Shown piece after piece: positions 1-60,556 of a stretch of DNA of 64,000 nucleotides (position 1 is its first letter; each line of letters starts with the position of its first letter). The stretch is from assembly GCA_000091205.1 (NCBI GenBank), contig AP006491.2; one strand, given 5' to 3'. The position numbers and the translations under genes were made by a program. The DNA is from Cyanidioschyzon merolae (Eukaryota). The notes under the pieces were generated by a model that saw only the letters and a program-made list of their open reading frames with translations, made no database searches and was not told the DNA's origin.

Positions 1-964
1 ATGTGACTTGATGTTGCACATTGGAACCAGGTTGAAGCGCTTCCCCATTAGGACAGCCTTCCGTCTCTCCCACTCTTCATTGTTTTCCCCACTCAGCTTC
101 ATCTCCGCTTTGCGTTCGAGTTCACGGTCCAAAAACACGAAGTACCTCAAGATGAGGAGGCAGTATCTTTCCTTATCTTTTTTCAACTCTGATACCTTTT
201 CTGATGGATTCACCAGCCCCAAGACTGCACGGTGCTCTTGTATAACCGCACGGATCACAGAAGCTTCATTCGTGCTCTCGTTTGACGCCTTCTTCTCGAC
301 AAATTCGACCTCATCTTCACGCTTGCGATCTTTCATGATGCCATTGATAATCGCCCATTTTCCATTGCGGGATAGGCCCGGGTAGAGTGCAACCACGGCG
401 CGTATTAAGAAACGTTCGAGGTTCGTTGTCAAATGGTTCTTCAGGTTCGTGATGCACTTCATCGCCCCATAGTCGTAAATATCGCGGTCACCCCTGCATC
501 GAGTACCGTTGAAGCTGTAGAAGGGATGTTTTTCGTGGAGGGCACGCACCAGCTAATGTTCCGTCCGCGCTCTCTCTGTGCCAAGCATCAGGTGACGAAT
601 AAACGTCTTGTCGAGAAACTCGTCCGCAACCTCGACTATTTCCATGTGCGTCACGTCTTCGTACATCTCCCTCGCGCAATGCATCAGTTCTGACGACGCC
701 TTGACAATACTCTTGGAGTACGAATCGAGACGTTTTTTGATAGCGTCTCGCAACTCTTCCCTGTAGGGATCCTTGATATGTCCAAGAAGGAAGGATTTCA
801 CCGCCTTCTCGTTGTACAGCCGTCTTTCTTGCCGCCTTCGACGTAGGGCCTCCCCCCTTCGGTTCCTCTTCTCTTTCTTTTCTTCTGGACTCGGCACTGT
901 TTTTTGTTTTTTTTCTGGCAGCCGGCGACCTTGGGCCCCCAGGATCGTGCACTTTCTTTTCCAT
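1..964 (-). pseudogene. Truncated, frameshifted second copy (N-terminal part) of the TnpB/Fanzor-like gene. It continues beyond the left window edge.
   Basis: Minus-strand ORFs 488..964 and 553..897 encode [11 protein letters not shown]... and ...[41 protein letters not shown]...RTEH. These are near-identical to the N-terminus of the 5739..7913 gene. A 1-nt insertion in a poly-A run shifts the frame relative to the other copy. Plus-strand ORF 8..385 is the antisense of the continuing reading frame, matching ORF 6317..6694(-) of the other copy. Confidence 0.7.
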
Positions 965-1225
965 AACTTTCCTTTTTAGTATTTTTGAGAAAGAACGCTC
1001 TTTGAACCCTTCTGTTATATGCTGCGAAAAAACACTTGACTAGACTTGTTTGAGAGCTGACACAAAAATGAACTGAAAACTATACGTTGCCAAGATCTCA
1101 ACGGGAATCCGACTTTTACAGCTGAACAACACGCTACTGATCTCAATCGAGTTTCCCTTCAACGGCGACATACGCGTCGTGTCTCATGCCTGCCAGATCC
1201 CCCAGGTGCACTCACCGGGCGCGAC
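1..1225. repeat. Left arm of a ~1.2 kb inverted repeat. Its partner is at 5478..6700.
   Basis: The reverse complement of 1021..1225 matches 5478..5690 almost base for base (for example gctgcgaaaaaacacttgactagacttgtttgagagctgacacaaaaatgaactgaaaac). The coding parts match the ORF pairs 8..385(+)/6317..6694(-) and 488..964(-)/5739..6149(+). Confidence 0.85.
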
Positions 1226-4200
1226 TCTTTTTTTCATAGACAAGACGTTTACTTGTGCCCGCATTCTCCGATTGTGCGCTTTTTCTTTTCTTACTTTTTT
1301 TTTCAGTGTGCGGTGACGTATCCATCAACCCCCTACCTCCATGTTACATTACTTGTACTTCGTTTTGGATATTCTGGTCGTTTCATACGTCCTATCGTGT
1401 GCCGAGCCTGCCGAAAGCGACAGCAACGGCGCCTAAAGCGCCGGTGCGGTCGCTGCACGGAGACAGAACGGCTTTTCCATACCACAGAGGGCGTCGGCTC
1501 GAGGCATGGTTCACCCGACGTAGAATCGGGTCTCGTCGTCAGTTTGAGCTCGGATAGTCTGCGGATGCAAGCTTGTCTTCGCTGCACGATACGCTGGAGA
1601 AACTTGGCTGTTAGGATACATCCTAGGAGCCGCCTCTCTCCTTCCTGGTCATGCATGGAATGCGTTGTTGTCGGTTGGCAATGCGAGTTTGTGCTTGACA
1701 CCCACCACTGTGGGTAGGCGCAGAAAGCGCACTGGGCCCGTGTGCGCATCCGATACGCTGGACCTCATGCCTAGAACGTAGCATGTGAGTTTGTTCGCCA
1801 CTAATGAGCGCTGAGGCTCGGTTAGCGGACCATCAGTTACCAGTGCTACACTCCGAGTGAGTGTCCGGCCTTCGACAATCACGGTGATGTCCAGCTGCTG
1901 CTGTCCCCCAAGGAGCTCGCTGCGCTCCTGCTTCCAGCGCGGGCAATGTAGGCCTAAATGTGTCAGCGTCTCGGGTATCTCGTCTCGACAGCAGGGACAG
2001 TGTGATTCCCAGTGCGATTCCAGTGTTCCTATACGGCTTAGAGCCGGTGCTGCCAGCCGGAAGCCACCAACGCGGATTTTGGCGAGCCACTGGGTACCTC
2101 GAGCAAGTCCCGGGAATTCCAGCCTCCTACCAGTACTTGCATGTGTATGCTAGGTTGTAGTTCCGGTATAGAGTCAAGCCGGCGTTACTGGCGCGACTGG
2201 TTCCGTGTATACGTTCCCATATGGTTGTTTGGACCGTTCGCTTGAGGCGGCGGGAGCCTTGTGCATTTCTGGGGAACGATTCGAGCGCATTTTCGCCTAA
2301 GAGGCGCTTCAGCCAAATATGCGTTGATTTCATCCAAGTGTTCTTGCGGTGCGTTGGGGTTTGCATGAAACTCCGACTGAACCAGGTGCGCATGGTGGGC
2401 CCTTTGGCCCATATGCGTGCCCGGCAGCCTGCTGCTATCGCTTCTGTCGAGGGTATTTGGAGTTCAAGTCCGAGTGCCAGCGCGGTGGTTGCTCTGCTCT
2501 GCACTGAGCATCAAACAACGACAACGAGTCGCATTGCCCTGTTGGCGGCTGTCTGCGGACGCGAGGCATTTGTGTGCTTCATGCCGCACCACCCAGCACC
2601 CCAGGTCGCAGGCTGGATGATACACATCCTTCGTGCGCTGGTACGAATTGCTATGCAGATAGAGGGGTCGGATGGGACTGGGCGTGCGATCGCTGTACGT
2701 CTATGCATCTTGGCGATCATCTCGTCAACGTGTGCGTTTTCGTCGAGCGTCGGCGTTAGACAGACCCCCAGGTAGCGATAGTTTTCCCCGATCGGAATTT
2801 CCTGATTCTGCAACCGCCACGAGCGATTGCGAATGCGCTGCGAGTCTCCATGGATGGCCATGACGCCGCACTTCGATGCTCCTACGTTCATCTCCCAGCG
2901 ATCGGCCCAGGCGCTGGCTTGTTGCATGCTACCCGCAAGCGTTTCCGGGGCGGGTGCCAACAGCACTATATCGTCCGCAACTAGACGGCCTGCGAGGCGG
3001 TTCCTATGTGAGGGCTCCTCATCGGGCATCTCCCCAGTCTATCCACGGCACCTCAAGCCCGTATTGTCTGCAGTTTTTCAGCGGATCGTTGATGAAGATG
3101 TTGAAAAGGAGCGGGGATGCGCGCTCGCCCTTTTGTAGTCCACGGCGTATTCTTATACAAGGGGTTCTTGAGCCGTCGCCCAGTCGGATGCGCATCCACG
3201 AGTCTGCATAGAGCGCACGGAAGAACGCTAAGCACTTTCCGGAGACTCCGGCTCGTTCCATCTTCAAAAATAGAGCCTCGTGCGGGACCGTGTCAAAGGC
3301 CTCTTGGAAGTCGATGAAGCATACGTAAGTTGGTTGTTGGCCGCTAATGGAGCGACGTTGCGCCACTTCAATGAGGGTCAGGGCATGGTTCATGCACTCA
3401 TCGCGGCTCCGGAATCCAGCCTGTTCTGGGGCGAAGAACTTGCGTTCCTCGAGGCCTCTCTGGATCCGGTTCGTGAGGTTGGCGCAAAAGTAGCTTCATG
3501 ATTGACGGGATGAGGCCGATAGGCCGGTAGATGTTCATGTCTTTGTGTGTAAGAGTCCTTTTTGAGGATCGGTACGACCTCGGCAGTCCTCCGTACATCT
3601 GGGATGCACGCTTCTTCAAACATGCGTTGAATGAGCTCCAGAAGGCGTTTGCATAAGATTGTGTCAGGTTCATCTGGTATCGATGGTGTCCCTGTTGTCT
3701 CGTATTTTGGGGTCACCAGTTTCATCCACTCCGCAGGGATACCGTCGATGCCAGGTGTTTTGCGGTTGCTTGAGCATAGTAGGGCCCGAACAGATTCAGG
3801 CCAGAAGATTGGCTCGTTCCATTCCGGTACCGGGTCGAGGCGCGGTAGTTCTGCAGCATATTGGTGCCAATAGATTCGGTCTTGGCAGTTCCCAGTTGCG
3901 TCTTCATGCAGCTCTATCCCGTGGTCCGTCCAGGCCTCATTCACTGAGGCACGCTCCGTCCTCAGCGCTTCCTTATAAACGATTGATGTGAGCCGCAAGC
4001 ACTTTTTTGGTGGGTCCAGTCTCGATCGAATGTAGCGCTAGGTCTCATCTTCGTTGGTGCCCTCGAGCATAAATTCCGTCAGGGAGTCGATTTTGCGGTT
4101 TCGATCCTCTCGTTTGTCTTCTCTGGAACGTTTCTTCTTTCTTTTGATAGCGTCCTCATGTTGCGCCTGTAGCGCCGGTAGCGCTGCCTTCGCTTCCTTG

Positions 4201-5477
4201 TCTCCGGCGTTGGCGCGTATGGCGGTGCGGTTGACGATCTTATAGAGTCGGTGGCATTCATCATTCCGAGTTTTGGTACGTCATTCCAGGTACCGCGGTT
4301 TGCAACTGTTGTGTTCTGGTGCAAGCAGTCCCAGTTCTCTGGCAATCTTCTGATTCCCATCTACATACTCGCGTGCCAATTGGTCAAAAGATTTGTATGC
4401 ACGGCTTTTCGGATCTTCAGCGCTGTGAGCAGGTGCCTGGGTTTGGCGACGTTTTTCTTGGGTTCCCGCTGGGGTGCCCTTTCGGGGGATCACTTGCGAT
4501 GGGCTCGTTTGGGGGGGTCTTCTTTCTATTCTTCTGTTTTTTCTTGTCGGTCTTCCTCGTCTTCTTCGGGCTCTTTCCTGAGCTGCTTTCTCTGGATATT
4601 TTGCATCTAAGTGGATCATGAGGTTTCTGTGCCTCCTTCTCCGTATCTGGTTGGGTCTCTTTACCTAATGCAGAGTCCTCCACTTGTATCAGTTCTTCGT
4701 TACAGTACTGGTAATTCGAAATCTCGTCGTCTAGTATCGAGGCCGTCCCACAAATATTCCATGATACGAAACCTATCGAGTCATAGCGCATACGGGAATA
4801 GGAATAGCGCTACGGTACTCCAGAGATACGTTGTCGATTTAGATACACGCTTCACGAGGTGTGTGAACGTACATGCCACCATTGCCCTCTGCATTCCAGT
4901 CGTTCATTGAGTGTCTGCCGCAGCGCTAGCGCGGAATCAGAAGTACATTAGTAAAGGTCGATTCGAATGCGACCTTTATCTTGCCGGACGCGTGTACCTC
5001 TCCTCAACCACAGGGGATACTCTACGAACCAACCTTTCAGCGGCTTCGTATCCGCTCCCCAAATACATAGGCGGGCAAGTCGCTTACTCCACCTTCGACA
5101 GTGAACATACTGGCAGCCGTCTTCAAAAGTATCCGCCGAGATTGTTTCCAAAGTTGAGGTAGGTACGCAAGGTAGGAGGTACAACTGAGCCCGAGTTCGA
5201 GGATAGATCCAGTATTTGCGCCGAAACCTGCAGCGTTGATTCGGGAGGGGCGAATGACTGCTCAGAACTCTCGTCAATATTTTCTGGTGCTACTGCCTCC
5301 GCCCCTCCGTTCGTTGCGGTCAAGGTCCCTGGCGTGGGCTTCCTTCCCCGTCGCTTAAACACCCCGCGTTAACCCATTTTCAGAGCTTCTCTGGAAAATC
5401 TAGACCTCTTAGGCGAGGGTGGTGTGTGGGGCTTTTAAGATAGTGGTTCTTTGATAAATAGTTTGCGACTAGTTTGC
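1226..5477 (-). mobile_element. Degenerate non-LTR (LINE-like) retrotransposon with a frameshifted reverse transcriptase. No intact endonuclease is recognisable.
   Basis: Minus-strand ORFs 3390..3998, 3019..3393 and 2511..3029 carry RT motifs in the expected order: KTPGIDGIPAEWMKL, RRTAEVVPILKK, YVCFIDFQEAFDTVPHEAL, QKGERASPLLFNIFINDPL, LVADDIVLLAP. An A-rich tail lies on the minus strand at ~1226..1300, exactly where the inverted-repeat arm ends. A possible APE-like start (SWNICG) at ~4740 sits in an otherwise unrecognisable segment. The 5' boundary is approximate. Confidence 0.75.
2511..3998 (-). pseudogene. Reverse transcriptase domain of the LINE-like element, split over three frames.
   Basis: RT motifs 0-5 are seen in the order expected on the minus strand. 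Frameshifts fall between ORFs 3390..3998, 3019..3393 and 2511..3029. Confidence 0.75.
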
Positions 5478-6700
5478 ATCACGCTCGGTGAGTGCACCTG
5501 GGGGATCTGGCAGACATGAGACACGACGCGTATGTCGCCGTTGAAGGGAAACTCGATTGGGATCAGTAGCGTGTTGTTCAGCTGTAAAAGTCGGATTCCC
5601 GTTGAGATCTTGGCAACGTATAGTTTTCAGTTCATTTTTGTGTCAGCTCTCAAACAAGTCTAGTCAAGTGTTTTTTCGCAGCATATAACAGAAGGGTTCA
5701 AAGAGCGTTCTTTCTCAAAAATACTAAAAAGGAAAGTTATGGAAAAGAAAGTGCACGATCCCGGAGGCCCAGTGTCGCCGGCTGCCAGAAAAAAACAAAA
5801 AACAGTGCCGAGTCCAGAAGAAAAGGAAGAGAAGAGGAACCGAAGGGGGGAGGTCCTACGTCGAAGGCGGCAAGAAAGACGGCTGTACAACGAGAAGGCG
5901 GTGAAATCCTTCCTTCTTGGACATATCAAGGATCCCTACAGGGAAGAGTTGCGAGACGCTATCAAAAAACGTCTCGATTCGTACTCCAAGAGTATTGTCA
6001 AGGCGTCGTCAGAACTGATGCATTGCGTGAGGGAGATGTACGAAGACGTGACGCACATGGAAATAGTCGAGGTTGCGGACGAGGTTTTCGACAAGACGTT
6101 TATTCGTCACCTGATGCTTGGCACAGAGAGAGCGCGGACGGAACATTAGCTGGTGCGTGCCCTCCACGAAAAACATCCCTTCTACAGCTTCAACGGTACT
6201 CGATGCAGGGGTGACCGCGATATTTACGACTATGGGGCGATGAAGTGCATCACGAACCTGAAGAACCATTTGACAACGAACCTCGAACGTTTCTTAATAC
6301 GCGCCGTGGTTGCACTCTACCCGGGCCTATCCCGCAATGGAAAATGGGCGATTATCAATGGCATCATGAAAGATCGCAAGCGTGAAGATGAGGTCGAATT
6401 TGTCGAGAAGAAGGCGTCAAACGAGAGCACGAATGAAGCTTCTGTGATCCGTGCGGTTATACAAGAGCACCGTGCAGTCTTGGGGCTGGTGAATCCAGCA
6501 GAAAAGGTATCAGAGTTGAAGAAAGATAAGGAAAGATACTGCCTCCTCATCTTGAGGTACTTCGTGTTTTTGGACCGTGAACTCGAACGCAAAGCGGAGA
6601 TGAAGCTGAGTGAAGAAAACAATGAAGAGTGGGAGAGACGGAAGGCTTTCCTAATGGGGAGGCGCTTCAACCTGGTTCCAATGTGCAACATCAAGTCACA
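5478..6700. repeat. Right arm of the ~1.2 kb inverted repeat. It is the 5' flank plus 5' coding region of the Fanzor-like gene.
   Basis: Reverse complement of 1..1225. It includes ~260 bp upstream of the ATG at 5739. Confidence 0.85.
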
Positions 6701-7913
6701 TTTTGTGACTGTCGACTCCAGAATCCTTTACGGCATCATGAAGGGGATCAGTCCGGAGTTCAATGTTAGCAGGGAGGAATTCTCCGGTGAAAACCGGGAG
6801 ACGTCTTGGAAGAGTCTCTTCGATTTCAAACGTCTCAAAGCCAGCAAACAAAAGGTACTTACTGGGTTGATCGAAACCGATGGAGTAGCCTTGTGTATAC
6901 ACTATCGGCGGTTGAAGAGAGATCGTCCAGTCCTGCCCTCGGCTGCGCCCGCGACGAAGGATGAAGATAAGAAGGAAGCGGCTCCTGTAACGCAGGAGGT
7001 GGAGGATAGTGACTTTCTCGTTGACGCGGCGAAGGATGAAGATAAGAAGGAAGCGGCTCCTGCGACGCAGGAGGTGGAGCATAACGACCTTGTCGTTGAC
7101 GCGGACCCTGGAAACACAAATATCATAACCATCGCTTTGCCCAGGCGTGTGGAAGATGATACTGATGGTAACTTACGTCAGAAAGACATGCGAATTTTGA
7201 GCTTCTCGAGAGCGAGATACGATCGAGAATCGGAAATCATGAATGCAAGGAAGAAAACTGAGACATGGAATGCAGGAATGAAGGAGCACCTGGAAGCTTT
7301 GAGCGAGGTGACGAGCCGAGGAGCGGACTTTGAAGCTTTTTGGAAATTCATGGAAGTTCGCATGGCGCATTGGGATGCCCTGTGGAAAGAGTATACAAAG
7401 CCCCGGTGGGCTCGTCTGCGTATGAACTTGTATTGTGGGAAGCAGCGGGCGTTCGCGAATTTGTTCAATGAGTTGAGCGCCTTGAAGGAGGATGGGAGTC
7501 AGAGGCTGGTAGTGGCTTATGGAGCAGGGCGCTGGGCGTCGAAGAAAGGCACTACGCCAGCTCCAACTACGAGGGTGCACAAGGAGTGCGCAAGGCGTTT
7601 TGTTACAATACCTGTAGATGAGTTCCGAACATCGAATACAAACCACGAGCTGGGATGCACACCCCAGAGAGTGGAGATGGAAAAGTGCCAGAGGAGCCCT
7701 GAGGAATTTGCAAATTACGGACCGCTGACGGAGGAGCAAATGGAAAGGAGAGCGAAAGTGCGAGGGCTACTTGCACTATTAAGTACAACGAACGATGGCA
7801 AGAAACGTATGGAGTTCGTGAATCTTGACTTTAATGCCGCTATCAATGTAAGGAGATGTGCGGTGCTGGAAAGTAGACCTCCAGAGTGGACACGAGAGAA
7901 CTTTTTTGGATAA
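5739..7913 (+). CDS. TnpB/Fanzor-like RuvC-domain nuclease (eukaryotic IS605 OrfB homolog), ~724 codons. The frame is interrupted by a single in-frame TAG at 6147..6149. It reads as an N-terminal 136-aa basic/NLS-like ORF 5739..6149 plus a core ORF 6153..7913 whose first ATG is ~6240.
   Basis: A RuvC-I-like motif [17 protein letters not shown] is at ~7086..7135. A RuvC-II-region block [28 protein letters not shown] has Ala where TnpB has the catalytic Glu, as described for Fanzor1. The TS motif plus Zn-finger remnant [15 protein letters not shown]...KC follows. The RuvC-III motif [10 protein letters not shown] is at ~7821..7850. The N-terminus is Lys/Arg-rich (RKKQKT...[17 protein letters not shown]). 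Confidence 0.6.
6956..7105 (+). repeat. 75-bp tandem duplication (x2) inside the Fanzor-like ORF.
   Basis: gaaggatgaagataagaaggaagcggctcctg(t/c)(a/g)acgcaggaggtggag... occurs twice in tandem. It encodes [25 protein letters not shown] then [25 protein letters not shown], and runs into the RuvC-I motif. Confidence 0.85.
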
Positions 7914-8134
7914 CCTCCCAAAGTCGAACTATATGAGAAAAAGTTGGAAGCAGAAGTAGGTGGCCGGTCGAAAAAGGCGCGGAGGCGCCTGCGCGTCGAC
8001 TGGAAACGTTTCGTGTAAGGCGCGGTTTTCCCGCCACTACTGTAAACTGCCGACGTCGTTCGACTTAGAGCGGCGTTGGCGGCTGTCCGTTCAGGGTGGC
8101 CTCCTGTGCGAGCTTGGCGTCGATACTTGCACAT

Positions 8135-11100
8135 ATGGGTCGCATACAGCGCCTAGAGGTAGAAAACTTCAAGTCTTACGGTGGCAAGGTGTGCATCGGA
8201 CCTTTCGTGGAGGGGTTTACGGCTGTCATCGGACCTAACGGCGTTGGTAAGTCGAACTTATTAGATGCCTTGGGGTTTGCGCTAGGCTTGCCCGCCCGCT
8301 TTCTTCGGGCGCAGCGCTTAGCAGAACTTATCTATCGCAAATCTGACCATGATGTTGTTCATGGGCAGGAAGTTGCTGGTGAACATAACGTGGACGGTGC
8401 AAACCAGTCCCACCGTGAAACGGCGGTGGCAGGGCACGCAGACGGCTGCGCTAGCGTTCGTCTCTTTCTGGAGGTTGCGCCCGACCAGGTGCTCATTTTT
8501 GAGCGTTCCATCGAAACGAAAGGTGTTGCGAGCTACCAGGTGAACGGTCAACCGCTGAGCTCCGAGGAATATGCGGATAAGCTGGCAGAACACTCGATCT
8601 TAGTGAAAGCTCGCAACTTCCTCGTGTTCCAAAACGAAGTGGAAGATATAGCGACAAAGTCGGGAAAAGCGTTATCTGCGCTCTTCGAAGAGATATCGGG
8701 ATCGGCCGAGTTACGCAATGAGTACGATTCGGCCTTGGCGGAGGTTCGCAAGGCCGAGCAACGGCTCCATTTGTGCGCCCAGAAAAAGAGGGGCCTCCTG
8801 GCCGAAAAGAAACAGTGTCGCGCGCATTGCGATGAAGCTGAGCGTTACAACCAGCTGCAGCAACAGATCGCGAAGATCAGGAAGCTTCGCGTGCTGTTCC
8901 AGCTGTTTCATTTGAAGAAGGATGATTCCGAAGCTGAAGAAAGCACGCAGGGACTCGAACGCGAGTTGGAAGCTCTGCGAGCACGAAGAGTTACCATCGC
9001 CAGCGACCTGGAAGACCAGAAACGGGCTCTCGCCAGCATGCGCCGCGAACAAGCCGCCCTCGAAAAGCGGCGGCAAGCACTCGAGTTATCCCTCGAGAAG
9101 AATCTGATACAGCAAGCAGCTAAACGAAGCGAAGCTCGCGCTGCGGAGAAGCGGCTCTCGATGGAGCAGAAGGCCCTCGACAACCTTCGCACCAATCGGA
9201 CGCGATCCAGGGAGGAGATTCATGCGCTGGAAAAGGCGCTTGCCGAAGTTGGAGAAGCGCTGCGTGCTTTGAACGAAGAAGAGGAGCAGGCGTTGGCAGA
9301 ATTGCAAGCCGCTCACGGAGTGGATTCCTCTGCAGTTCGCAGGTTACGTGATGAGGCGGTCGCGAGCACTGCGAGCATGCGTGAGATGCTTACCACGGCC
9401 GAGAGAGCAACGGCTGCGCTACGCGCCATGCACAAGACGGAGGCGCAGAAGCTCGCGGCCTTAGAACGACGCTTTCGCGAGCTGGAAATCGATCGTGATC
9501 GTCTTTCCATGCAGATCGAGAAGATTCGGGCAAAAATCCAAGACGCGGAGAGAAATTTGGAAGAGGCCCGCATCGCAGACCAGAAGGCGCGACGGCGGTC
9601 CAGCGAACAGGCACAGAAACGCGAGGCGCTCGAGAGGGCGGCCCAGCAGTATCGCGAGCGTCTGCTAGAACTTCGCTGTGCACGAATGGAGTCCGAAAGA
9701 GAGCGAAGATTCCACGAAACCTTAGATCAAATCATGCGTCTGTTCCCTGGCGCTCGAGGTCGCATCGTGGATATCTGCCGGCCCGTCCAGCGACGCTACG
9801 AAGAAGCCGTATCTGTCATTCTGGGCAAGCTTGGAGATGCGATTGTCGTCGATGACGAACGTACAGCAAGCGAATGCATCGCTTACTTGAAACAGCAACG
9901 TGCGGGCACGGCTACGTTCTTGCCCCTTGCTGAGATTCGTCCCGCGCCCATTGATGAGAGCTTGCGTGGTATTGGTGGCACTGTGCGGCTCGCAATCGAT
10001 GTACTCGAGTTTGACAAGTCATTCTTCCCGGCCATTCAGTATGTTGTCGGAAACGCCTTAGTTTGCGACAGTTTGGATGAAGCACGCCATGTTGCGTACG
10101 GCGGCAGTCAGGTTTCACGCATCTGCACAATCGATGGCACGCTGATCCACCGTTCTGGGTTCATTACCGGCGGCGCGGAATCCGATCAGGGTGCGTCGCG
10201 CACGCTCTGGGAGAATGAACAGGCCGTCTCTCTCAAGCGGGAATTGGATGAAGTTTTGCTGGAGTTAGCGAAACTTGGTCCAGTAGATTCGGCACAAGAG
10301 CGCAATGAAGCTGAGCAAGCCCATGAAGTGCTCCTCAGTACTCAAAGACATCTCGAGTATTTACGACACGAGCTGCAACAAAATGAGGAACGTGCTGTCA
10401 AAGTCAGCTCCCAGCTGAATGCGCTTCACGAACAAGTCTCCAAAGCCAAGGTCAGCGAGGAACAATGCCGGCATCAACTCGAACAAGGCGTCGCAAATGT
10501 ATCCCAGATCAAAGAAAGAATCGAACGCGCAGAGCGAGAAATACTCGGAGATATTTCCCCGCAGAGTATTCACCGAAACGAAGAGTTCCGCGAGCGTCGC
10601 CTGGCGCTGACCTCCCAGCAAGCCAAACTGCGCGCTCGTTTAGAATACGAATACGCCAGAGAAGCAGAAACCAGCGAGCAGGACCTCGTCGAGCGCGTCC
10701 AAAAGGCCACCGCAGCCAGAGCTGAGCTGGACACCCAGATTGAACGCCTAGAGCGTGAGCAGGAAACACTCGAGCACAGTATCCGGGAGGCACTGCAACA
10801 ACAAGAGCATATTCAGCAACAACTGGCAAAAATAGAGGAAGCTCTGGAAAAGATGCGCGAAGAAGAGAAGCAGCTGGCAGAAGACATCAGTTCCAAGGAA
10901 AACGCCCTGAACACGCACCGCGCAAACAAGGAGGATATCGCCGAGCGTCTGCGCGCCCTGGAGACTGCGTGTCGCATCGACCAGATCGATGTGCGTGCGC
11001 CCGCGACAGCAGCAGAGGCGGGTCGGGGTCAGGGCCGCGGCGCTGGGCATTCGAGCGATCGCGCACGCGCTCGGACGCGCACCCGTGGTCCATCTGGTGC

Positions 11101-14099: not shown

Positions 14100-16205
14100 A
14101 TCCCTGGAATCTCTCTATAAGGGCATCTGCTGAGCGCGCCGCCGCACTTGGAAAGCCTACACCAGAGCCTGATCCGCAGCCGGGGAACCGCATCGCATAC
14201 GACCCGCGCACAAGTGACGCTGCACGCCGCGTGAGTGGCGCGGTTTTCGGAAGGGAAGAAGGGGCAGGTGCGAGGCGTGCCTCATGGACGTCGTTACAAG
14301 TCCAGCGCGTCGTGCATCGCAGCGAAGCGGTGCGTCTGCGAGTGGGCGCTCTGCATGCCAGCCTCTGGGACACTCGGTCTCAGCAGAAACGAACAACCCG
14401 CCTGCGTAGGAGCTTTTCATCGCTGTATCGGTTGCATCTGAGCCTGAAAACAAAAACCCCATTTTAAATGTTGCGGCGTTGGTTTTGGTGACGTCTGCGT
14501 AGCGAGTCCCAACTCGGATCTCGATACCTAGAAACTCGCTCTGAGCTTGCAGATAGCACACACATGCCGAAAACGCGCTCCAGACACGATTGATCACCTG
14601 CTGTGCCATTTCATGTCATCCACAGGTCATCCACCGACGGCTTGGAAAAGTTGCAGTGGCGCGGTAGAGGGTCAAAGTATGGCGTGGACGCAGACGATGT
14701 TGCGCGGCAATGACAAGCGCTGCCCGGGCATTTTTTCGCACGTGTCTGCATTGAGTGGAGCGAGTCGCCGTAGAAAACTCGGACGTGCGCGTGAAAGCTT
14801 TTCTTTTGCTTCCCATGGCCATCAACACCAGTCTCTGCGGGCTTTTCATGCGACTGCCTCTTTATCCGCTCTCTTATCTCCGGATTTGCGTACGGCTATC
14901 GCTGCTCTCCGACAAGCTCCGATATCAACAGTCGAATATTGTTGATGGCAGCGTTATTGTACAGATATCATCGCTTCCGGCTATTGTCGACGCCTATGAT
15001 GCAGATGAGGCAGTTGCGAATTACGTTTCAATAGCCATTTTCATGTTCTTTGGCTGCAGCACCGATGCGTCCGTAGCAGCGGTGGCGCTCGGCTGAACTC
15101 AGGGATTTTCACGTGTCCACTATATATCCTGGTCCGGGGCCTGCACTGTGGCGCGTAAACGCTTGTTGCATTGCTCGGAATGTGCACATAACGGATACGA
15201 AAGGTGCCTCTCGATGCACGCCTCCGTTTCCGAGCCCGGTGCCGTACCCAACGATCTCGGGCCTCTTTTAGGCGATCTCCTCGGCGTGTGCTCTGTCCGC
15301 TCCGAGTACAAACGCACGTTGCTCCGTTCGATAGCGGATTCGAAGAACGCGGTTTGGTTCTTGATGAAATAAGTAGCAGAAGGGGCACCAAGAATGCGGA
15401 ACAACTCGAGAAATATCGATCTCCCTACGCTGCGTTCGTGGAAAGCGTCGACGAACCCTCTATTGGATGCGATCGCTCCGATGATTCAGGTTTGAGTCTA
15501 AGACACTGTTCCATGCAAACAGAACGGACGGGAGCCTCTGGGAGCTCATCTCGCGAGAGGTATAAAGTTAGAATTTTAGTGAACTTTCTGCTTGAGCTTC
15601 TGAACAAGTCGTCATACGATGACATCGAATGTTTCCCCCAAAAAAGAATAAGTCCGACCACTGACAAGCAATTCGATAAAAGTAGCTTTCCAGCTCTATG
15701 TTAAGCATTGAAAGGGAGAAAAGGTTGCCGCATCTTCGAAACTTTAACTTCTAGACGCAAGGTCCCGCGAGCCGGTCGAGTGTGCCGGGCTTGCGCTCCA
15801 TGTGCCTCTGCAGTGGCGGATGCTGCTGTGAGCCTTGAACAACTCGTCCGCAATGCAGTGTACTCTCGGACTCGGAGCGGCCAGGCCGTGTCTGGGCGTT
15901 GCCCTGGTCGCGGTGGACTCTTTGCATATCGCTCCGCGCTGCCGCATGCAGCGCGTCTGTCCGCGCGGCTCGCAGGCTCCCAGAATGAGTACGTTCTCCG
16001 ATTCTGCCACTGGTGAATCACACCTCGAGGTACCACTCTCTAAGGTATGGCAAAGCCGTTCTCTCCCTATGATGCATACGCACCAGCGATATAAGCACTA
16101 GTGCAGGTGCAGCAAGGCAGGTACTCAGCACTCGATAGAACCTAAGAAACGACCAGTCTCTCCGAGAGAAACAAAGGGTAATGGAACCTGAGCGCAGGAT
16201 GCAGC

Positions 16206-17573
16206 ATGATAGACAATTTCCCAACCCCCGATGTACATCCTGCAAGCCAGGGTTCACGGTCAATCTTAACGATTTGTCGAGCAAAAAAAATCGTGTATCC
16301 GGGAAGCAGCGATCCCCAGTTGCGCGCTGATGCTAGGCATCTGGTACAGGCTCCCGCACGGTCATCGTTGCCCCAGGGCGCGATCGTTGCCACTGCGCCG
16401 CGCCCTTGCATTTTGTCGCACTCACTGGAAGCCGCTGGCGCTGTTTCGCCGCAGCGTTTGCGTGGCGCCTGCGCCTTCGCTCGCCACGAGCGCGTGCGCA
16501 CGCATGCGCCTGCGACCTCAGAGGCGCGCGCACGTCCGGCCCTAAAGGGTAACAGTGCTCGCAGATACGCTGCGAACGGTGGGCACGTGAGGATGACTGC
16601 TTTATCCGCGGCCTTTGTAGGGTCTTTGGGACCTGGTACACGAATTCAATTGCGCTGTACGCGTCAGCAGTCAAGAGTCCCTCTGGGGAGCGGTGGAGCG
16701 AGTGCTCGGAGCAGTTTGCGCGCGGGACGTCCACGGCGCCTCGCGTGCTGCGCGCCGGAGGCCAGCGGTCTCTCTGAGCCTATCTTTCAGACGAGGACCT
16801 CAGCTGATGCTGAGCACGCCAGTTTTCCAAACGGTCGCAGTGTTCCGAGGAAAGAGTCTGGAGCCGCGTTGCCGGAAGACACCGGCGAGCACGCTGGGAG
16901 CCTACCAGCTTCGTTGCCTGTCGACGTGCCGTCACTTGGGACCGCCCCAGAGAGAACCAGTTACTCTGTTTGTCCCGAGCTGTTGTCGTCGACCGCAAGC
17001 ACTTTCCGACCGTTTACTCCGACCGAGGCGTTTGGTGGCCTTGGCGTCTCGTGGGACGAGCTGGAGCCCCCGCAGCTCGGGGAACGGCTCTCGATTTTCC
17101 AGCGGGTAGCCGCTGACGTCGGGCCGGAAGCGTGGGCGCGAATTGCCTCTGCTGAGAAAATGGACGGTGACGAGGATGAACAGCTCGCCACGGCGGAGGG
17201 CTTCGACCGACTGCGGAAGCACCAGTTGCTGTTTGATTTCGAAATAAACCCCTGCCGCAAAGAAGAGGCTCGCGAGATGCTCATCCATCGAATGCGCAAA
17301 ACGCGGCAGCGCATACTGTATTTGCAGAAGGAGATTGACAAGCTTCCGGAGCGACTGGAGAAACTCATTGCCGAACTGGATGTATGCACAGAGCGCGGCG
17401 ATCGACGGCGGCGTCAGGACGTGCTAGCGCTCGGGAACCGCCTCTGGGCGCGACATCATGAACTGATCGACATCATCGCACGGGAGGAAGTGCGCATGGA
17501 AGAGTACTTGTATGTCTGGGGGCGTCTGCGTTGTAGCGATGACTCGGCGGATGTAACTCAAATTGGGGTGTGA
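16206..17573 (+). CDS. Hypothetical protein. The N-terminal half is Arg/Ala/Ser-rich low complexity and the C-terminal region is coiled-coil.
   Basis: A long ATG-initiated ORF. The C-terminal ~150 aa (FDRLRKHQLLFDFEINPCRKEEAREMLIHRMRKTRQRILYLQKEIDKLPERLEKLIAEL) looks protein-like. The N-terminal part overlaps several antisense ORFs, so it may not be coding. Confidence 0.35.
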   Translation: MIDNFPTPDVHPASQGSRSILTICRAKKIVYPGSSDPQLRADARHLVQAPARSSLPQGAIVATAPRPCILSHSLEAAGAVSPQRLRGACAFARHERVRTHAPATSEARARPALKGNSARRYAANGGHVRMTALSAAFVGSLGPGTRIQLRCTRQQSRVPLGSGGASARSSLRAGRPRRLACCAPEASGLSEPIFQTRTSADAEHASFPNGRSVPRKESGAALPEDTGEHAGSLPASLPVDVPSLGTAPERTSYSVCPELLSSTASTFRPFTPTEAFGGLGVSWDELEPPQLGERLSIFQRVAADVGPEAWARIASAEKMDGDEDEQLATAEGFDRLRKHQLLFDFEINPCRKEEAREMLIHRMRKTRQRILYLQKEIDKLPERLEKLIAELDVCTERGDRRRRQDVLALGNRLWARHHELIDIIAREEVRMEEYLYVWGRLRCSDDSADVTQIGV

Positions 17574-57265: not shown

Positions 57266-60200
57266 CAGCCTCGACAGCAGAGGCGCTGAACACTGGCAGC
57301 GGTGCTGATACTAGCCTTCGCAATCAACTGCATACCAATGCTGGTCATCAGGAACGATGCGCTGGCTGCTCGCAGCGTCAAGTGCTCCTGGCCGGCACCG
57401 AGCTGCTGGCGAGCATCCGTGCGCGCGCGCAGTCGACCGCCGCGACGCCACCGAGGCCTGCCAGTGTCCAAGTTCCAGACGCGCCGCTCAGGCGACCGCG
57501 GCCTCCTGCAACGTCCGAACCTCCCCTGGGGGCACAGATACGGGACCCCGCGGCACACGCGCCTCGCCGGAAGGCAGGTCCATAGGAGCGCCCACCGCGC
57601 CACCTCTGGTGACGGATACCGCTCCAGGTACAGGAGGCAATGGGGTTGCGGCACGCGTAGCAGCGCAGCGGATCCATTTTTAGGCTCGTGCTTGTGAATG
57701 CGCTCCCGAGACGCCGACGAGTGCCTCTGAACTGCATGCAGTCGATGTGCTTGCGCGCTCCCGACCTGCTCCCGAGTCGACAGCAACGCCAATCCTCTGG
57801 CTGGAAAGCAGCGCACTCGGGGCGAGGTATTCCAGCGGCAGAAGTGTGTGCCTGCATAGCGCCGTTGCTGCAGGCGCGACACCGCTGCGCCGAATCGCCC
57901 ACTGTGCTGATGCCGGTCCCGCTGCAGTCCTGCGCTTCGGAAAAGGCGCCCAGCCTCATCTTTGATGCCGTTCCTCATGAGCGAGTGCGACCAGAGATAG
58001 CACTGCACGTCACCGCAAGAAACATCACTGCATTGGCCTGCTGCACGAAAATCAGCCAAAATCGCGCACAGTCCGCGTCGCTACACCATTTGCGGACTCC
58101 ACGCGTGCCTTGGGTTCTGGAAATGTGCATGCTACGCGCCGAGGCATCCAGGTCAGCGCTGGCAAAGGCCTGCGAACCAACCGACAGCCGGTGCTACAAA
58201 CGTGGGCGCAGGTCGCTCATGGGCATGCGCTCGCGTTCGTGACGCTTCTCCAGTCGGTGTCGCGCGCTGCTCGTCATCGCGCACACGTTCTCGCGTAACC
58301 GCTGGAGGCGTGGATCGCAGCTCGCCATCACCGTAGTCGACAGCGAACAGCTCCCGCTCCACGAGTGTCGCCCGCCAGGGCATCGGCGCATTCATACGAT
58401 CGCAAAGCGCCGCGAACCCGCACAGCCATGTCAAAGAAACGGATCGCCTCCACTTGCCGAACTCGGGCGTGCAAATTAAGGTTTAGGTCTCTGCCCAGTG
58501 TCACGAACAGCAGCTTCTGCAGGCTTTCTCTGCGACTGCCTCCTTTTCCCATTTCTTTTCCGGATTCACATACGCCAATATCTCCGTTGCTTGTAACTCC
58601 GTTTACGCTGTCGAAGGATGTTGATGGCAGCGTTCAAGCTCGATTTCGACGCTCCGGATTGTTCTTGACGCATTTCGTGTACAGGCAGAAGTTGCGAACG
58701 ACAGCCGGCTTTGCCATTTTCATCTTCCTTGCATACATACTCGATGCCCTTGGACGCAGCGGTGTATCTTGACTGTGGCCAGATGGTCGCGAAGGTACCC
58801 CAAACTTCGCATTCCGGGTGCTGCTGTGTATCGGCGAAGCGATCGCTGCGTCGCTCGGGAAATGCCGGTGACAGGCAGAGAAAGCTTTCACCGATGCCGA
58901 CCGCGTTTCAGCTGCCGCTGTCGTATGCGGCGATCACGTCTTTCTGCTGCATGATTCTTTTGAAGAGCTATCTGTCTGCTGCATACGCAAGCGCAAACTG
59001 TTCCATATGATGGACAATCTGTGGAAGCTGATTTTGTCCATGACGAAGTAACCATCAGAAGGATACCTCAGACCGGAGTACAAATCGATAAATCTTGATC
59101 CGTCTACGTTCTCTTCGTTCAGCGCTACGACGCACTCTGCACTGGAAGCGATCGCTGCGGTGACTGGTCTCCAAGTCCAATAGTCTTTTCTACTGTGAGC
59201 AGAACAGACGGGAGCCCTGTGGCAGCATGCACCGCGACGAGTATGAAACTGTTCGTGAATGCCGTTTCTTTGATGACCATAGAGAGGGGCGGATTTCTCC
59301 TTCGAACCAAGTCGATACTTTTTCTTGATAAGTGCTCTGTACTTTCGACATGTTGTTATGAACAAGTCGTCAGGGGCCCAAGTCCTATAGTTTACGTCGT
59401 TCATCCAGCGCCGCGAATCGCTGCGCGCATGAGTTGCATGGAAACAGAAAGATCGAACAGTTGAAGAACGCGTGACTTGAGCGTATTGCGCTTGAGGAAA
59501 ACAGAAGAATAGAGGCTTGTATTTATGAATCGAATAATGATTTAGGTCATTTTTACCAATCCTCATTCGATGTTTTCCTGAATCATCTTGTTCCCGATGA
59601 CGTTCCAAATTCCAACCGCCAAGTGTCAAAAGAGTCACCCCGAGAACACGACCGGGAATCCCTAAACGAAATATGAATCCATAAGCCCATATTGCTGCAC
59701 TTTCATGTCAAGGCTATCCCTGGAGAGCATGCTCGGAACAAAAAATCTCGTGGTACGAACAGAGCGATCAGTGCTGTGCCACTTTAATCTCATATGCGCT
59801 GATAGACTTTCACATGCATTGCGTTCCACACCCAGGGGAATGGCATCAAATGCTTCTTCACGGTTGATAGTGGATGCGTTCGAAGTGCGCTCAGTTGAGG
59901 AAACAAAAATTCAAGGGAAACTTATGGACATGAAAGTCGGGGATCCTGGAGCCCGATCATCGCCGAGCGCCGACTAAAAACGAGAAAACCCTCTCCTCGC
60001 CGATCGTCGAGTGAAAAAGGGCAAGCGACAAAGAAGAAGAGAAGGAGAGCTTGACGAGAAAAGTGCTTTGCCCGAGGAGACAATGACGAGAATGCAGTGG
60101 CCATGAGGGCACCAGCTTGAGGACGCCTTGCACTGGTGAGTTCAAACAGCGACAATGAACGCAAGGAGTTCGTGAACCGAGACTTCACCGCCGCTATCTA

Positions 60201-60556
60201 TCTCAGAAGATGTGTGGAGCTGACCACGAGACCCGAGGAGCTGACGCCATCCAACTTCCTGGGTTACACTCTAATGCCCGCAGCGCACAAGGAAAAGCTG
60301 AAACCGTTCGCAGCGGGCCAGTCAAACAAGTCTAGGAGGCGTCCGTGATTACATATGTATGTAATCACCATGGTCGTGGAGATTTTTTCGTTTTACTGAT
60401 CACCCGTACCCGCCCGCGCCTTGCGGAGCTCTCGCCCAAATCGCTGTCGTTTGCGCTGTGGTCCACGTACCGACGGTTCCAAGAACTGTCGCTCTACGGA
60501 GCGGGCGTTTTCGCGCTCCCTGGCACAGTGAATACGCTTCTTTGTTGAGAAGGCTG

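Follow-up and report, generated by a model that had tools for sequence, protein, structure and literature searches.

This locus raises the question of whether a reading frame next to SMC1 in Cyanidioschyzon merolae, resembling TnpB and Fanzor nucleases, encodes a working RNA-guided endonuclease. The window, which is the whole stretch of 64,000 nucleotides analysed here, belongs to a red alga. Its eukaryotic origin is evident from a calnexin 74% identical to that of Cyanidiococcus, and SMC1, a cyclin, a HECT ligase and CAP-H2 are among the neighbouring genes. The original prediction had described a TnpB/Fanzor-like RuvC nuclease gene with a frame of ~724 codons, and the identity of the protein, the element that carries it and the state of this particular copy were analysed accordingly.

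Assignment of the frame to Fanzor1

All of the peptide motifs quoted in the original prediction are located in the frame (Table 1), and the family it named is borne out by profile and by fold. A profile of 93 sequences, composed of an earlier set and representatives from a search of 1.84 billion proteins, matched the solved Fanzor1 chains in the PDB, with E values of 1.2e-23 for PpFz1, 6.5e-17 for SpuFz1 and 4.6e-12 for GtFz1, all collinear. The link to Fanzor1 was seen only with this profile, while phmmer with the single protein and hmmsearch with a 13-sequence profile returned only noise against the PDB sequences. Identity between the family and these three proteins is just 12-16%. The AlphaFold2 model of the 586-codon body (pLDDT 86.3, pTM 0.82) was best matched by Foldseek to SpuFz (E 1e-13, TM 0.60), and ranks 1-7 in the PDB were all occupied by Fanzor1 chains of SpuFz, PpFz and GtFz (E 1e-13 to 1e-9). 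Next in rank came Cas12, TnpB and Fanzor2, with Cas12f among the weaker matches. The profile and fold matches both lie far beyond what chance would give. The frame is a Fanzor1-type RuvC nuclease, derived in eukaryotes from bacterial TnpB, with a relocated glutamate and a basic N-terminus. The latter had been likened to the NLS of Fanzors; the basic stretch is present, and we only infer an NLS function for it.

In SpuFz1, D383, E541 and D606 are the metal-binding (Mg) residues (PMC10432273). Judged by alignment, the window copy appears to keep the corresponding triad D318/E490/D559, in which E490 of the VDEFRTS motif would be the alternative Glu whose packing into the active site the original prediction had left to be checked. 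The canonical RuvC-II Glu of Fanzors has been reported to be replaced by Gly or Pro, with a rearrangement of the active site (PMC10530073). Its replacement in this frame had been recognized correctly, with Ala named at the position; the residue there is most likely not Ala and aligns, as invariant Gly457 of “AYGAG”, to a Gly of SpuFz1. Past selection on the family is visible in its RuvC half, where the third codon position is less conserved than the first two.

The cysteine-poor segment, previously read as a zinc-finger remnant, is not peculiar to this copy. The C4 zinc finger of the Fanzor/TnpB motif definition is absent across the clade, with 0-2 Cys in the span for 80 of the 93 sequences, and the published CMe-1 protein, counted as Fanzor1 by its authors, has an equally Cys-poor segment (PMC3627910). 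The Bao & Jurka motif D-X(125,275)-[TS][TS]-X-X-[C4 zinc finger]-X(5,50)-RD is found here only in part: the TS pair is present and the D...TS spacing is 175 aa, but the zinc finger is absent and “RD” reads “LD”.

Pfam gave a different picture. PF01385 and PF07282, the models named for checking the prediction, had zero matches to the window protein at E values up to 10, and neither OrfB_IS605 nor Cas12f1-like_TNB matched it directly. When seven homologues were scanned together with it, TnpB/Fanzor models were again absent, PF07282 reaching just E 0.23 in the intact relative P0004. The only precomputed Pfam label of the homologues is that of a DUF (PF26935, DUF8286). The Fanzor1 assignment nevertheless holds; treating the lack of such a hit as refutation, as the original prediction did, would wrongly reject it, since the relationship is visible only by the deep family profile and fold comparison. 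Clustered at 50% identity, the proteins that match the family profile form 3,388 clusters; standard Pfam scans miss this clade, and deep profiles or motif reading are therefore needed to recognize it.

Table 1. Positions of the element, its coding pieces, its motifs and its flanking sequences in the window.
Feature	Position	Strand	Basis
Inverted, head-to-head second copy of the element, cut by the window edge, frameshifted	1-1227	-	98.4% identical to 5479-6701
Retroelement with reverse transcriptase, exactly between two left ends	1228-5475	-	RVT_1 matches
Core repeat unit, CMe-1A-type Fanzor1 element (left end, ORF, right end)	5476-8077	+	Homology limits
Fanzor1-type frame as read in the original prediction	5739-7913	+	Quoted peptide motifs all in frame
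N-terminal piece, 136 codons, basic NLS-like stretch and conserved N-terminal region	5739-6146	+	Collinear with CMe-1 protein residues 1-136 and intact relative P0004
Premature stop TAG; consensus GAG (Glu)	6147-6149	+	Same TAG in orthologous loci L002 and L003
Frame body, 586 codons: helical N-terminal half, disordered linker, split RuvC domain	6153-7910	+	AlphaFold2 and Foldseek
75-bp tandem repeat x2 (25-aa acidic/lysine unit), disordered linker before RuvC-I	6950-7099	+	
Asp of RuvC-I (D318, numbered within the 586-aa piece; DADPGNTN motif)	7104-7106	+	Invariant in the 93-sequence alignment; aligns to SpuFz1 D383
Gly457 (VVAYGAG motif), most likely in the place of the canonical RuvC-II glutamate	7521-7523	+	Invariant; aligns to Gly of SpuFz1 “VVMGDW”
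Putative relocated catalytic Glu, E490, motif VDEFRTS	7620-7622	+	Invariant; aligns to SpuFz1 E541
RuvC-III motif Leu558-Asp559; Arg-Asp in the family	7824-7829	+	D559 invariant; aligns to SpuFz1 D606
Second premature stop TAA; consensus CAA (Gln)	7911-7913	+	Comparison with family consensus
Leftover in-frame tail (PPKVELYEKKLEAEVGGRSKKARRRLRVDWKRFV) and ancestral stop codon	7914-8018	+	Matches CMe-1 C-terminus ...PLKVELYEKKLEAVVGGRSKKTGRRLHVSWRRFV
Candidate scaffold region for an omega RNA; overlaps the 3' end of the ancestral coding frame and has the near-invariant CGCCACTACTGTA motif	7897-8077	+	Alignment of 55 distinct copies
Terminal hairpin, right end, 12-bp stem	8050-8079	+	dG -19.6 kcal/mol, z -4.1

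The CMe-1A unit, its ends and its neighbours

The element is not new. It belongs to a family already known as CMe-1/CMe-1A, the Fanzor1 element of Cyanidioschyzon merolae published by Bao & Jurka in 2013 (Mobile DNA 4:12, PMC3627910). When compared with the sequences taken from the supplements of that paper, the window copy is 84.9% identical in DNA to the CMe-1A consensus over consensus positions 670-2196 and 87.0% over 2117-3140, while the CMe-1 protein shares 76% identity with the window frame over 724 aa. Related loci are 79-87% identical to the CMe-1A consensus (median 84%), and the window copy is within the family similarity range (~80%) for CMe-1A membership. Further copies and termini, for which a survey had been proposed, were found in metagenome contigs as at least 386 related stretches with sharp common boundaries, and two more fragments of the family are present in the window itself. 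Compared by blastn with 83 related loci, the window shows homology limits that cluster at 5475-5478 and 8077-8079; comparison of these two element ends found no terminal inverted repeats. The family consensus runs 34-35 codons beyond the site at which CAA has become TAA, and the last 35 residues are lost in the window copy, where the frame stays open past this stop to the TAA at 8016-8018. The 25-aa linker repeat differs in copy number among paralogues, with one unit in the CMe-1 consensus, and in the AlphaFold2 model residues 260-301, in this linker, have pLDDT below 50.

At the left end, the 635-bp TE-N2_CMe 5' module is missing from the window copy, which is preceded instead by the element bearing a reverse transcriptase. 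The A7 tail of this retroelement, which reads as a T-run at 1228-1234 of the + strand, lies directly against the inverted copy, and its junctions with the CMe-1 left end recur in other loci. Typing of the 4.2-kb retroelement found RVT_1 alone, together with a 474-aa ORF without a PDB match; a “FVSWNICG” start in the retroelement resembles that of apurinic endonucleases. Of 46 left ends from related loci, 15 carry TE-N2. A solo TE-N2-like copy is also observed at 15640-16278. Moreover, two thirds of CMe-1 left ends adjoin, at the same nucleotide, one or other end of TE-N2 or of the RT-bearing retroelement, and retroelements of differing lengths fit exactly between two inverted CMe-1 copies. Such junctions suggest a site-specific retroelement targeting the CMe-1 left end, CMe-1 insertion into retroelement termini, or a composite with Fanzor-bearing arms. 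It is conceivable, though rather improbable in our estimate, that the CMe-1 units and the TE-N2 or RT-bearing retroelements are mechanistically coupled and not merely nested, and that the rare intact copies (P0004, 752 aa) are possibly active, zinc-finger-less Fanzor1 enzymes of a thermoacidophilic alga.

At the right end, the candidate guide RNA region (7897-8077) folds with an MFE of -65.8 kcal/mol (z -2.4), and in each of the other copies the hairpin is one of two variants, CGTTCGA...TCGAACG or CGTTTTTC...GAAAGGCG, with its register shifted. A consensus structure was not predicted by RNAalifold at default settings from 55 right ends. With ribosum scoring, 87.7% of cells were paired versus 34-56% when slid, and the covariation is weak, barely above shuffles. 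Rfam at the gathering threshold gave zero matches over the whole window. A Helitron-type 3' hairpin was considered for the terminal hairpin; neither a Helitron protein nor Helitron ends were seen. The omega RNAs of Fanzor1 lie at the element 3' end (PMC10432273), as does the candidate region. Judged by its homology to Fanzor1 enzymes of known structure and activity, an intact family member would bind a structured RNA transcribed from the element 3' end, take the 15-20 nt just past the right end as its guide, and cut matching DNA beside a short transposon-adjacent motif. Its active site would be formed by the Asp of RuvC-I, the relocated Glu of VDEFRTS and the Asp of NRD in one split RuvC domain. 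The window copy could at most supply guide RNA in trans to the protein of a rare intact copy. A search of the literature found no published test of RNA-guided cleavage by the CMe-1 protein.

Comparison with known systems defines the element further. The window copy shares with CMe-1/CMe-1A the start, the ancestral C-terminus and a matching right end (…CGCCACTACTGTACACCGCTGGCG…), and its family likewise has no TIRs and many copies ~80% alike, most of them decayed. It differs in that it lacks the TE-N2_CMe module and abuts a 4.2-kb RT-bearing element; its linker is longer by one 25-aa repeat, and it carries R558L as well as the two nonsense codons. The biochemically and structurally characterized SpuFz1, PpFz1 and GtFz1 (PDB 8gkh, 9ceu-9cf3) have the same fold (TM ~0.6), collinear motifs, the same Asp/relocated Glu/Asp site with Gly at the old RuvC-II Glu position, and a conserved non-coding region at the element 3' end, whereas the CxxC...CxxxxC zinc finger is absent from the present family, as are the 30-nt terminal inverted repeats of Spu-1. 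The split RuvC fold is also that of TnpB of IS200/IS605 (ISDra2) and of the “TnpB2” subset, with its relocated glutamate, and the guide RNA of IS200/IS605 TnpB follows the same logic, being located at the element right end (PMC10530073). In contrast to TnpB, the protein here has about double the length, its N-terminal half being large and helical; it is encoded in a eukaryote, a TnpA partner is absent and Pfam PF01385/PF07282 are unmatched. The Helitron2-borne Fanzor1 elements CRe-1/2/3 of Chlamydomonas resemble the present one in the absence of TIRs, a sharp hairpin-bearing 3' end, heterogeneous 5' sides and hundreds of copies. However, a Helitron Rep/helicase and Helitron ends were not identified here, introns are absent, and the 5' neighbours are retroelement sequences.

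Decay of the window copy and competing readings

The window copy is very probably a decayed copy, or pseudogene, of the known CMe-1A Fanzor1 family. The ~724-codon frame is not continuous: the in-frame TAG at 6147-6149 cuts it into pieces of 136 and 586 aa, and the TAA at which it seems to end, at 7911-7913, is a premature stop as well. That the TAG might be a sequencing error was rejected, since two independent assemblies of the same locus carry the same codon, and an intron spanning it was likewise rejected, since the CMe-1 alignment crosses the site without a gap and pairs the stop with Glu. At positions conserved to at least 85% in the family, the window copy has seven changes of its own. 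One of them, R558L in the NRD motif, replaces an Arg shared by all of the other 91 sequences. Stopped by TAG (codon 137) and again by TAA (codon 725), and with Leu in place of the invariant Arg beside the RuvC-III Asp, the copy cannot make a Fanzor1 protein. A functional Fanzor1 gene of the host, from which an active RNA-guided endonuclease would be made, would be in keeping with the retained catalytic triad, the high-confidence model fold, the complete lack of frameshifts over the 760-codon ancestral frame and a dN/dS of 0.31, not ~1, against the orthologue. It is nonetheless highly unlikely. The first of the two stops splits the conserved N-terminal region and is confirmed in the other assemblies, R558L alters a fully conserved position, and the sister copies are broken as well, an open frame being retained in only 2 of 63 full-coverage copies (related metagenome contigs) and lost in 61. 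The dN/dS was rejected as a sign of function because the sites that differ from the orthologue cluster in patches resembling paralogues, with 48 of them in 7500-7750, for instance; these patches, imported from other copies or reflecting assembly mixing, probably account for the low value. The expectation of a functional, noteworthy RNA-guided endonuclease is thus unsupported in view of the nonsense codons, the R>L change in NRD, a mostly decayed family and prior publication. As for whether this is a Fanzor at all, coincidental motif similarity, or membership of another RNase-H-like transposase family outside Fanzor/TnpB, could draw on the missing Pfam match and the DUF8286 label of the homologues, but is refuted by the profile, fold and published-consensus matches, which are all Fanzor1, and its probability is negligible.

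The proximity of SMC1 introduces a further reading, that the copy is dead as a gene and matters in cis, its right end providing the SMC1 promoter or 5'-UTR and/or a guide RNA in trans for intact copies. The neighbour that had been placed ~220 bp downstream is indeed SMC1, its best PDB matches being SMC1 (E 5e-161, versus 6e-56 for SMC4), with the ATG at 8135, 222 bp past the stop at 7913. The element lies upstream, and its right end (~8077) is separated from this start codon by just 57 bp. The insertion and SMC1 are both kept in orthologous loci, where SMC1 is 99.7% identical (dN/dS 0.19), and the window copy has an undamaged 3' hairpin of unusual stability. Against this, the element 3' end is conserved no better than third codon positions, that is, no more than neutral sites, and tight gene spacing is usual in the compact genomes of Cyanidiophyceae. 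Such a role, in cis or in trans, is regarded as unlikely. The preferred interpretation of the copy is a pseudogene of intermediate age, in which the catalytic triad and the RNA-like 3' end have been retained.

Implications for the family

For annotation, masking the frame as a pseudogene of the CMe-1A repeat is appropriate, in place of listing it as a host gene or a new nuclease. Beyond this locus, a large Fanzor1 clade is missed by standard Pfam scans. Any of the options for coupling between CMe-1 and the retroelements, if true, would classify two repeat families that were left “unknown” in 2013. Furthermore, those seeking compact genome editors tolerant of heat or acid could find a lead, and no more than a lead, in the small number of intact copies from red algae of hot springs.

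Assignment of the reading frame to Fanzor1

No Pfam family was returned at E up to 10 for the 136- or 586-codon piece of the frame at 5739..7913 (+), the scanned set being one without PF26935, and the OrfB_IS605 and TNB models, which the original prediction had proposed as a check, gave no match in seven homologues. Nothing was found among PDB sequences, either by phmmer with the window protein or with a 13-relative profile. When 5.8 billion proteins were searched by word index, 83 relatives were recovered, nearly all unnamed JGI metagenome proteins of 55-94% identity, with a few distant ones that include two from the green alga Haematococcus. These two (P0082 and P0083, Haematococcus lacustris, NCBI) comprise one protein fused to, or called jointly with, a hAT-transposase dimerisation domain (PF05699). 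The precomputed label PF26935 (DUF8286) is carried by many homologues (P0001-P0076) and by the related locus L001, and this family is apparently classified among domains of unknown function rather than under TnpB/Fanzor.

When the 13-sequence profile was run exhaustively in HMMER, 3,388 cluster representatives scored E 1e-3 or better, and 493 of them 1e-30 or better. The window protein and 92 of these representatives form the family alignment A2, in which P176, D188, D318, G320, G457, P471, E490, D559, and N565 (numbered along the 586-residue piece) are invariant. Against the PDB, the A2 profile matched collinearly Parasitella PpFz1 (E 1.2e-23), Spizellomyces SpuFz1 (6.5e-17), and Guillardia GtFz1 (4.6e-12), the alignment with Fanzor1 spanning TDGvs, DPGr, vvaYG, vDEFRTS, RGLl.c, and nRD.NAA.NI. 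In the profile alignment, D318, E490, and D559 lie opposite D383, E541, and D606 of SpuFz1, counted through the alignment, as the PDB chain bears a 394-residue MBP tag; these SpuFz1 residues coordinate two Mg ions (Saito et al., PMC10432273). The canonical RuvC-II glutamate is replaced, as had been proposed, but most likely not by alanine: its position probably corresponds to the invariant G457, opposite the Gly of SpuFz1 'VVMGDW'. Replacement of this glutamate by Gly/Pro, with a compensating glutamate further along, was reported by Jiang et al. (PMC10530073). An AlphaFold2 model built on A2 displayed a mean pLDDT of 86.3 and a pTM of 0.82, with residues 260-301 as the sole disordered stretch. 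Its closest folds in a Foldseek search of the PDB were Fanzor1 chains, which took the top seven places (E 1.4e-13 to 9.8e-10, TM up to 0.60 across ~600 columns), followed by Cas12 variants, ISDra2 TnpB, and Fanzor2. The profile matches, the aligned catalytic residues, and the fold match therefore demonstrate that the predicted family assignment was right.

It should be noted that SpuFz1, PpFz1, GtFz1, and TnpB possess a CxxC...CxxC zinc finger, whereas the window clade does not. The finger is missing clade-wide in A2 (residues 484-562; window 7602-7838), where cysteine is found at a single shared position (71%). A C4 zinc finger is included in the motif of Bao and Jurka (2013, PMC3627910), and their own CMe-1 sequence likewise lacks it. 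Relatives at 22-27% identity were also observed on contigs binned as giant-virus genomes (L084-L086; IMG/VR, three bins).

Decay of the window copy

All peptide motifs quoted in the original prediction are present, but the ~724 codons are not one open frame, being split into 136 + 586 codons by a TAG at 6147-6149, opposite which the CMe-1 consensus has Glu. The identical TAG occurs in L002 and L003, two independent metagenome assemblies identified as the window locus by the same RT element upstream and the same SMC1 downstream, and a read error is thus ruled out. At 7911-7913 the window has TAA, compared with CAA (Gln) in the consensus, whose protein runs 35 residues further; the reading frame of the window tail is preserved as far as the ancestral stop at 8016-8018, so that the ancestral frame of 760 codons contains two nonsense codons and zero frameshifts. 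At 28 of the 74 A2 columns conserved to at least 85% the window deviates, 11 of these deviations being just the absent N-terminal piece. Compared with the intact paralogue P0004, seven changes are exclusive to the window (F236L, Y357D, G361E, F437L, L504P, R558L, I566V), and R558, adjoining the RuvC-III Asp, is 100% conserved elsewhere in A2. With two nonsense codons and R558L, the proposal of a functional nuclease gene at this locus is not supported. Among the 83 related loci, 2 of the 63 copies covering the full protein are uninterrupted. In the disordered linker preceding RuvC-I, a 25-residue unit rich in Lys, Glu, and Asp is encoded by a 75-bp tandem duplication at 6950-7099; there is one such unit in the CMe-1 consensus, two in the window, and more in the copies P0004 and P0010.

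In the RuvC half of 34 non-redundant copies, codon positions 1+2 are conserved at 0.85-0.93 versus 0.71-0.78 for position 3, in agreement with the long-kept coding capacity described by Bao and Jurka (PMC3627910). For the window copy itself, the element differs from its orthologue at 4.1% of sites, SMC1 at 0.34%, and dN/dS is 0.31. This ratio was rejected as a sign of selection, since the differences are clustered in tract-like patches (48 within 7500-7750) and are uninformative in this respect. Patches differing by 5-19% from L002 were observed in the repeats at 2500-4500 and 6750-7750, with ~0.3% in the flanking unique genes. The clustered patches look like gene conversion from other family members, or repeat mixing in one assembly.

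Element ends and neighbouring sequences

The homology shared by the copies extends from 5475-5478 to 8077-8079, and no terminal inverted repeats were found between the two ends. The right end is sharp, with unrelated sequence beyond it that differs from locus to locus, and bears a near-invariant CGCCACTACTGTA motif followed by a hairpin in two variants, CGTTCGA..TCGAACG and CGTTTTTC..GAAAGGCG, each of which folds, in differing registers. The window hairpin (8050-8079) has a dG of -19.6 kcal/mol (z -4.1), and folding of the 181 nt that begin at 7897 gave a z of -2.4. RNAalifold (ribosum) on 55 copies gave 87.7% paired versus 34-56% in slid controls, the structure being derived from the same alignment. 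Covariation was weak, with 15 double changes versus 8.9 +/- 2.7 expected and a score matched by 37 of 500 shuffles. Fanzor1 guide RNAs consist of a right-end scaffold and a 14-15 nt guide beyond (PMC10432273), and by analogy we infer a candidate guide RNA at the right end, matching that position.

Repeats surrounding the element in the window
Feature	Position	Strand	Description
Second CMe-1-type copy	1-1227	-	Inverted, head-to-head, cut by window edge; 98.4% identical to 5479-6701
4.2-kb RT element	1228-5475	-	Exactly between the two left ends; RVT_1 fragments
Solo TE-N2_CMe-like repeat	15640-16278	-	76% identical to CMe-1A consensus positions 5-639
Two short CMe-1A matches	59846-60233	+	Match positions 832-969 and 2840-2971 of the consensus; probably what remains of a further, heavily deleted copy

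The inverted copy is frameshifted, and its left end is touched by the A7 tail (1228-1234) of the RT element. Of 46 left ends in related loci, 31 directly adjoin this RT element or TE-N2_CMe, the junction falling at the same nucleotide and the neighbour lying in either orientation; L035 and L054 each have a complete TE-N2 placed exactly between two inverted copies. Loci with RT/TE-N2 neighbours include L001, L007, L018, L035, L054, L060, and L080, and inverted copies also flank shorter versions of the element (1.25 kb, 0.64 kb). Over its first 200-300 bp, TE-N2 is similar to the tail region of the RT element. The solo TE-N2_CMe-like repeat has no adjoining Fanzor part. A LINE association was noted for the Fanzor1c clade by Jiang et al. 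(PMC10530073).

Naming of the downstream gene as SMC1 was confirmed by its best PDB matches, SMC1/SMC1A at E 5e-161 to 1e-136 versus 6e-56 for SMC4. Its ATG is located at 8135, and 57 bp (8078-8134) separate it from the element right end. Given this spacing, transcription of SMC1 may begin within the element or at its border.

Relationship to CMe-1A

Calnexin encoded in the window shares 74% identity with the Cyanidiococcus yangmingshanensis protein, 53% with its Cyanidium caldarium counterpart, and 48% with that of Galdieria, and the remaining long ORFs are intronless eukaryotic housekeeping genes. Such comparisons place the host among the Cyanidiophyceae red algae. One Fanzor1 family, CMe-1A, is listed for Cyanidioschyzon merolae, with ~150 copies, of which only some are intact, each ~80% identical to a ~3 kb consensus, the 5' 635 bp of which is the TE-N2_CMe repeat; it is without TIRs, and its target-site duplication was not determinable (Bao and Jurka 2013, PMC3627910). 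In their supplements, the CMe-1 consensus protein has 734 aa and the DNA 3,169 bp. Over all 724 residues, the window frame shares 76% identity with this protein, the sole gap being one extra 25-residue linker repeat in the window. At the DNA level, identity to CMe-1A is 84.9% (consensus 670-2196) and 87.0% (2117-3140), compared with 79-87% (median 84%) for related metagenome copies. The window frame is a real Fanzor1 relative belonging to an already described family, of which this copy is a decayed member.
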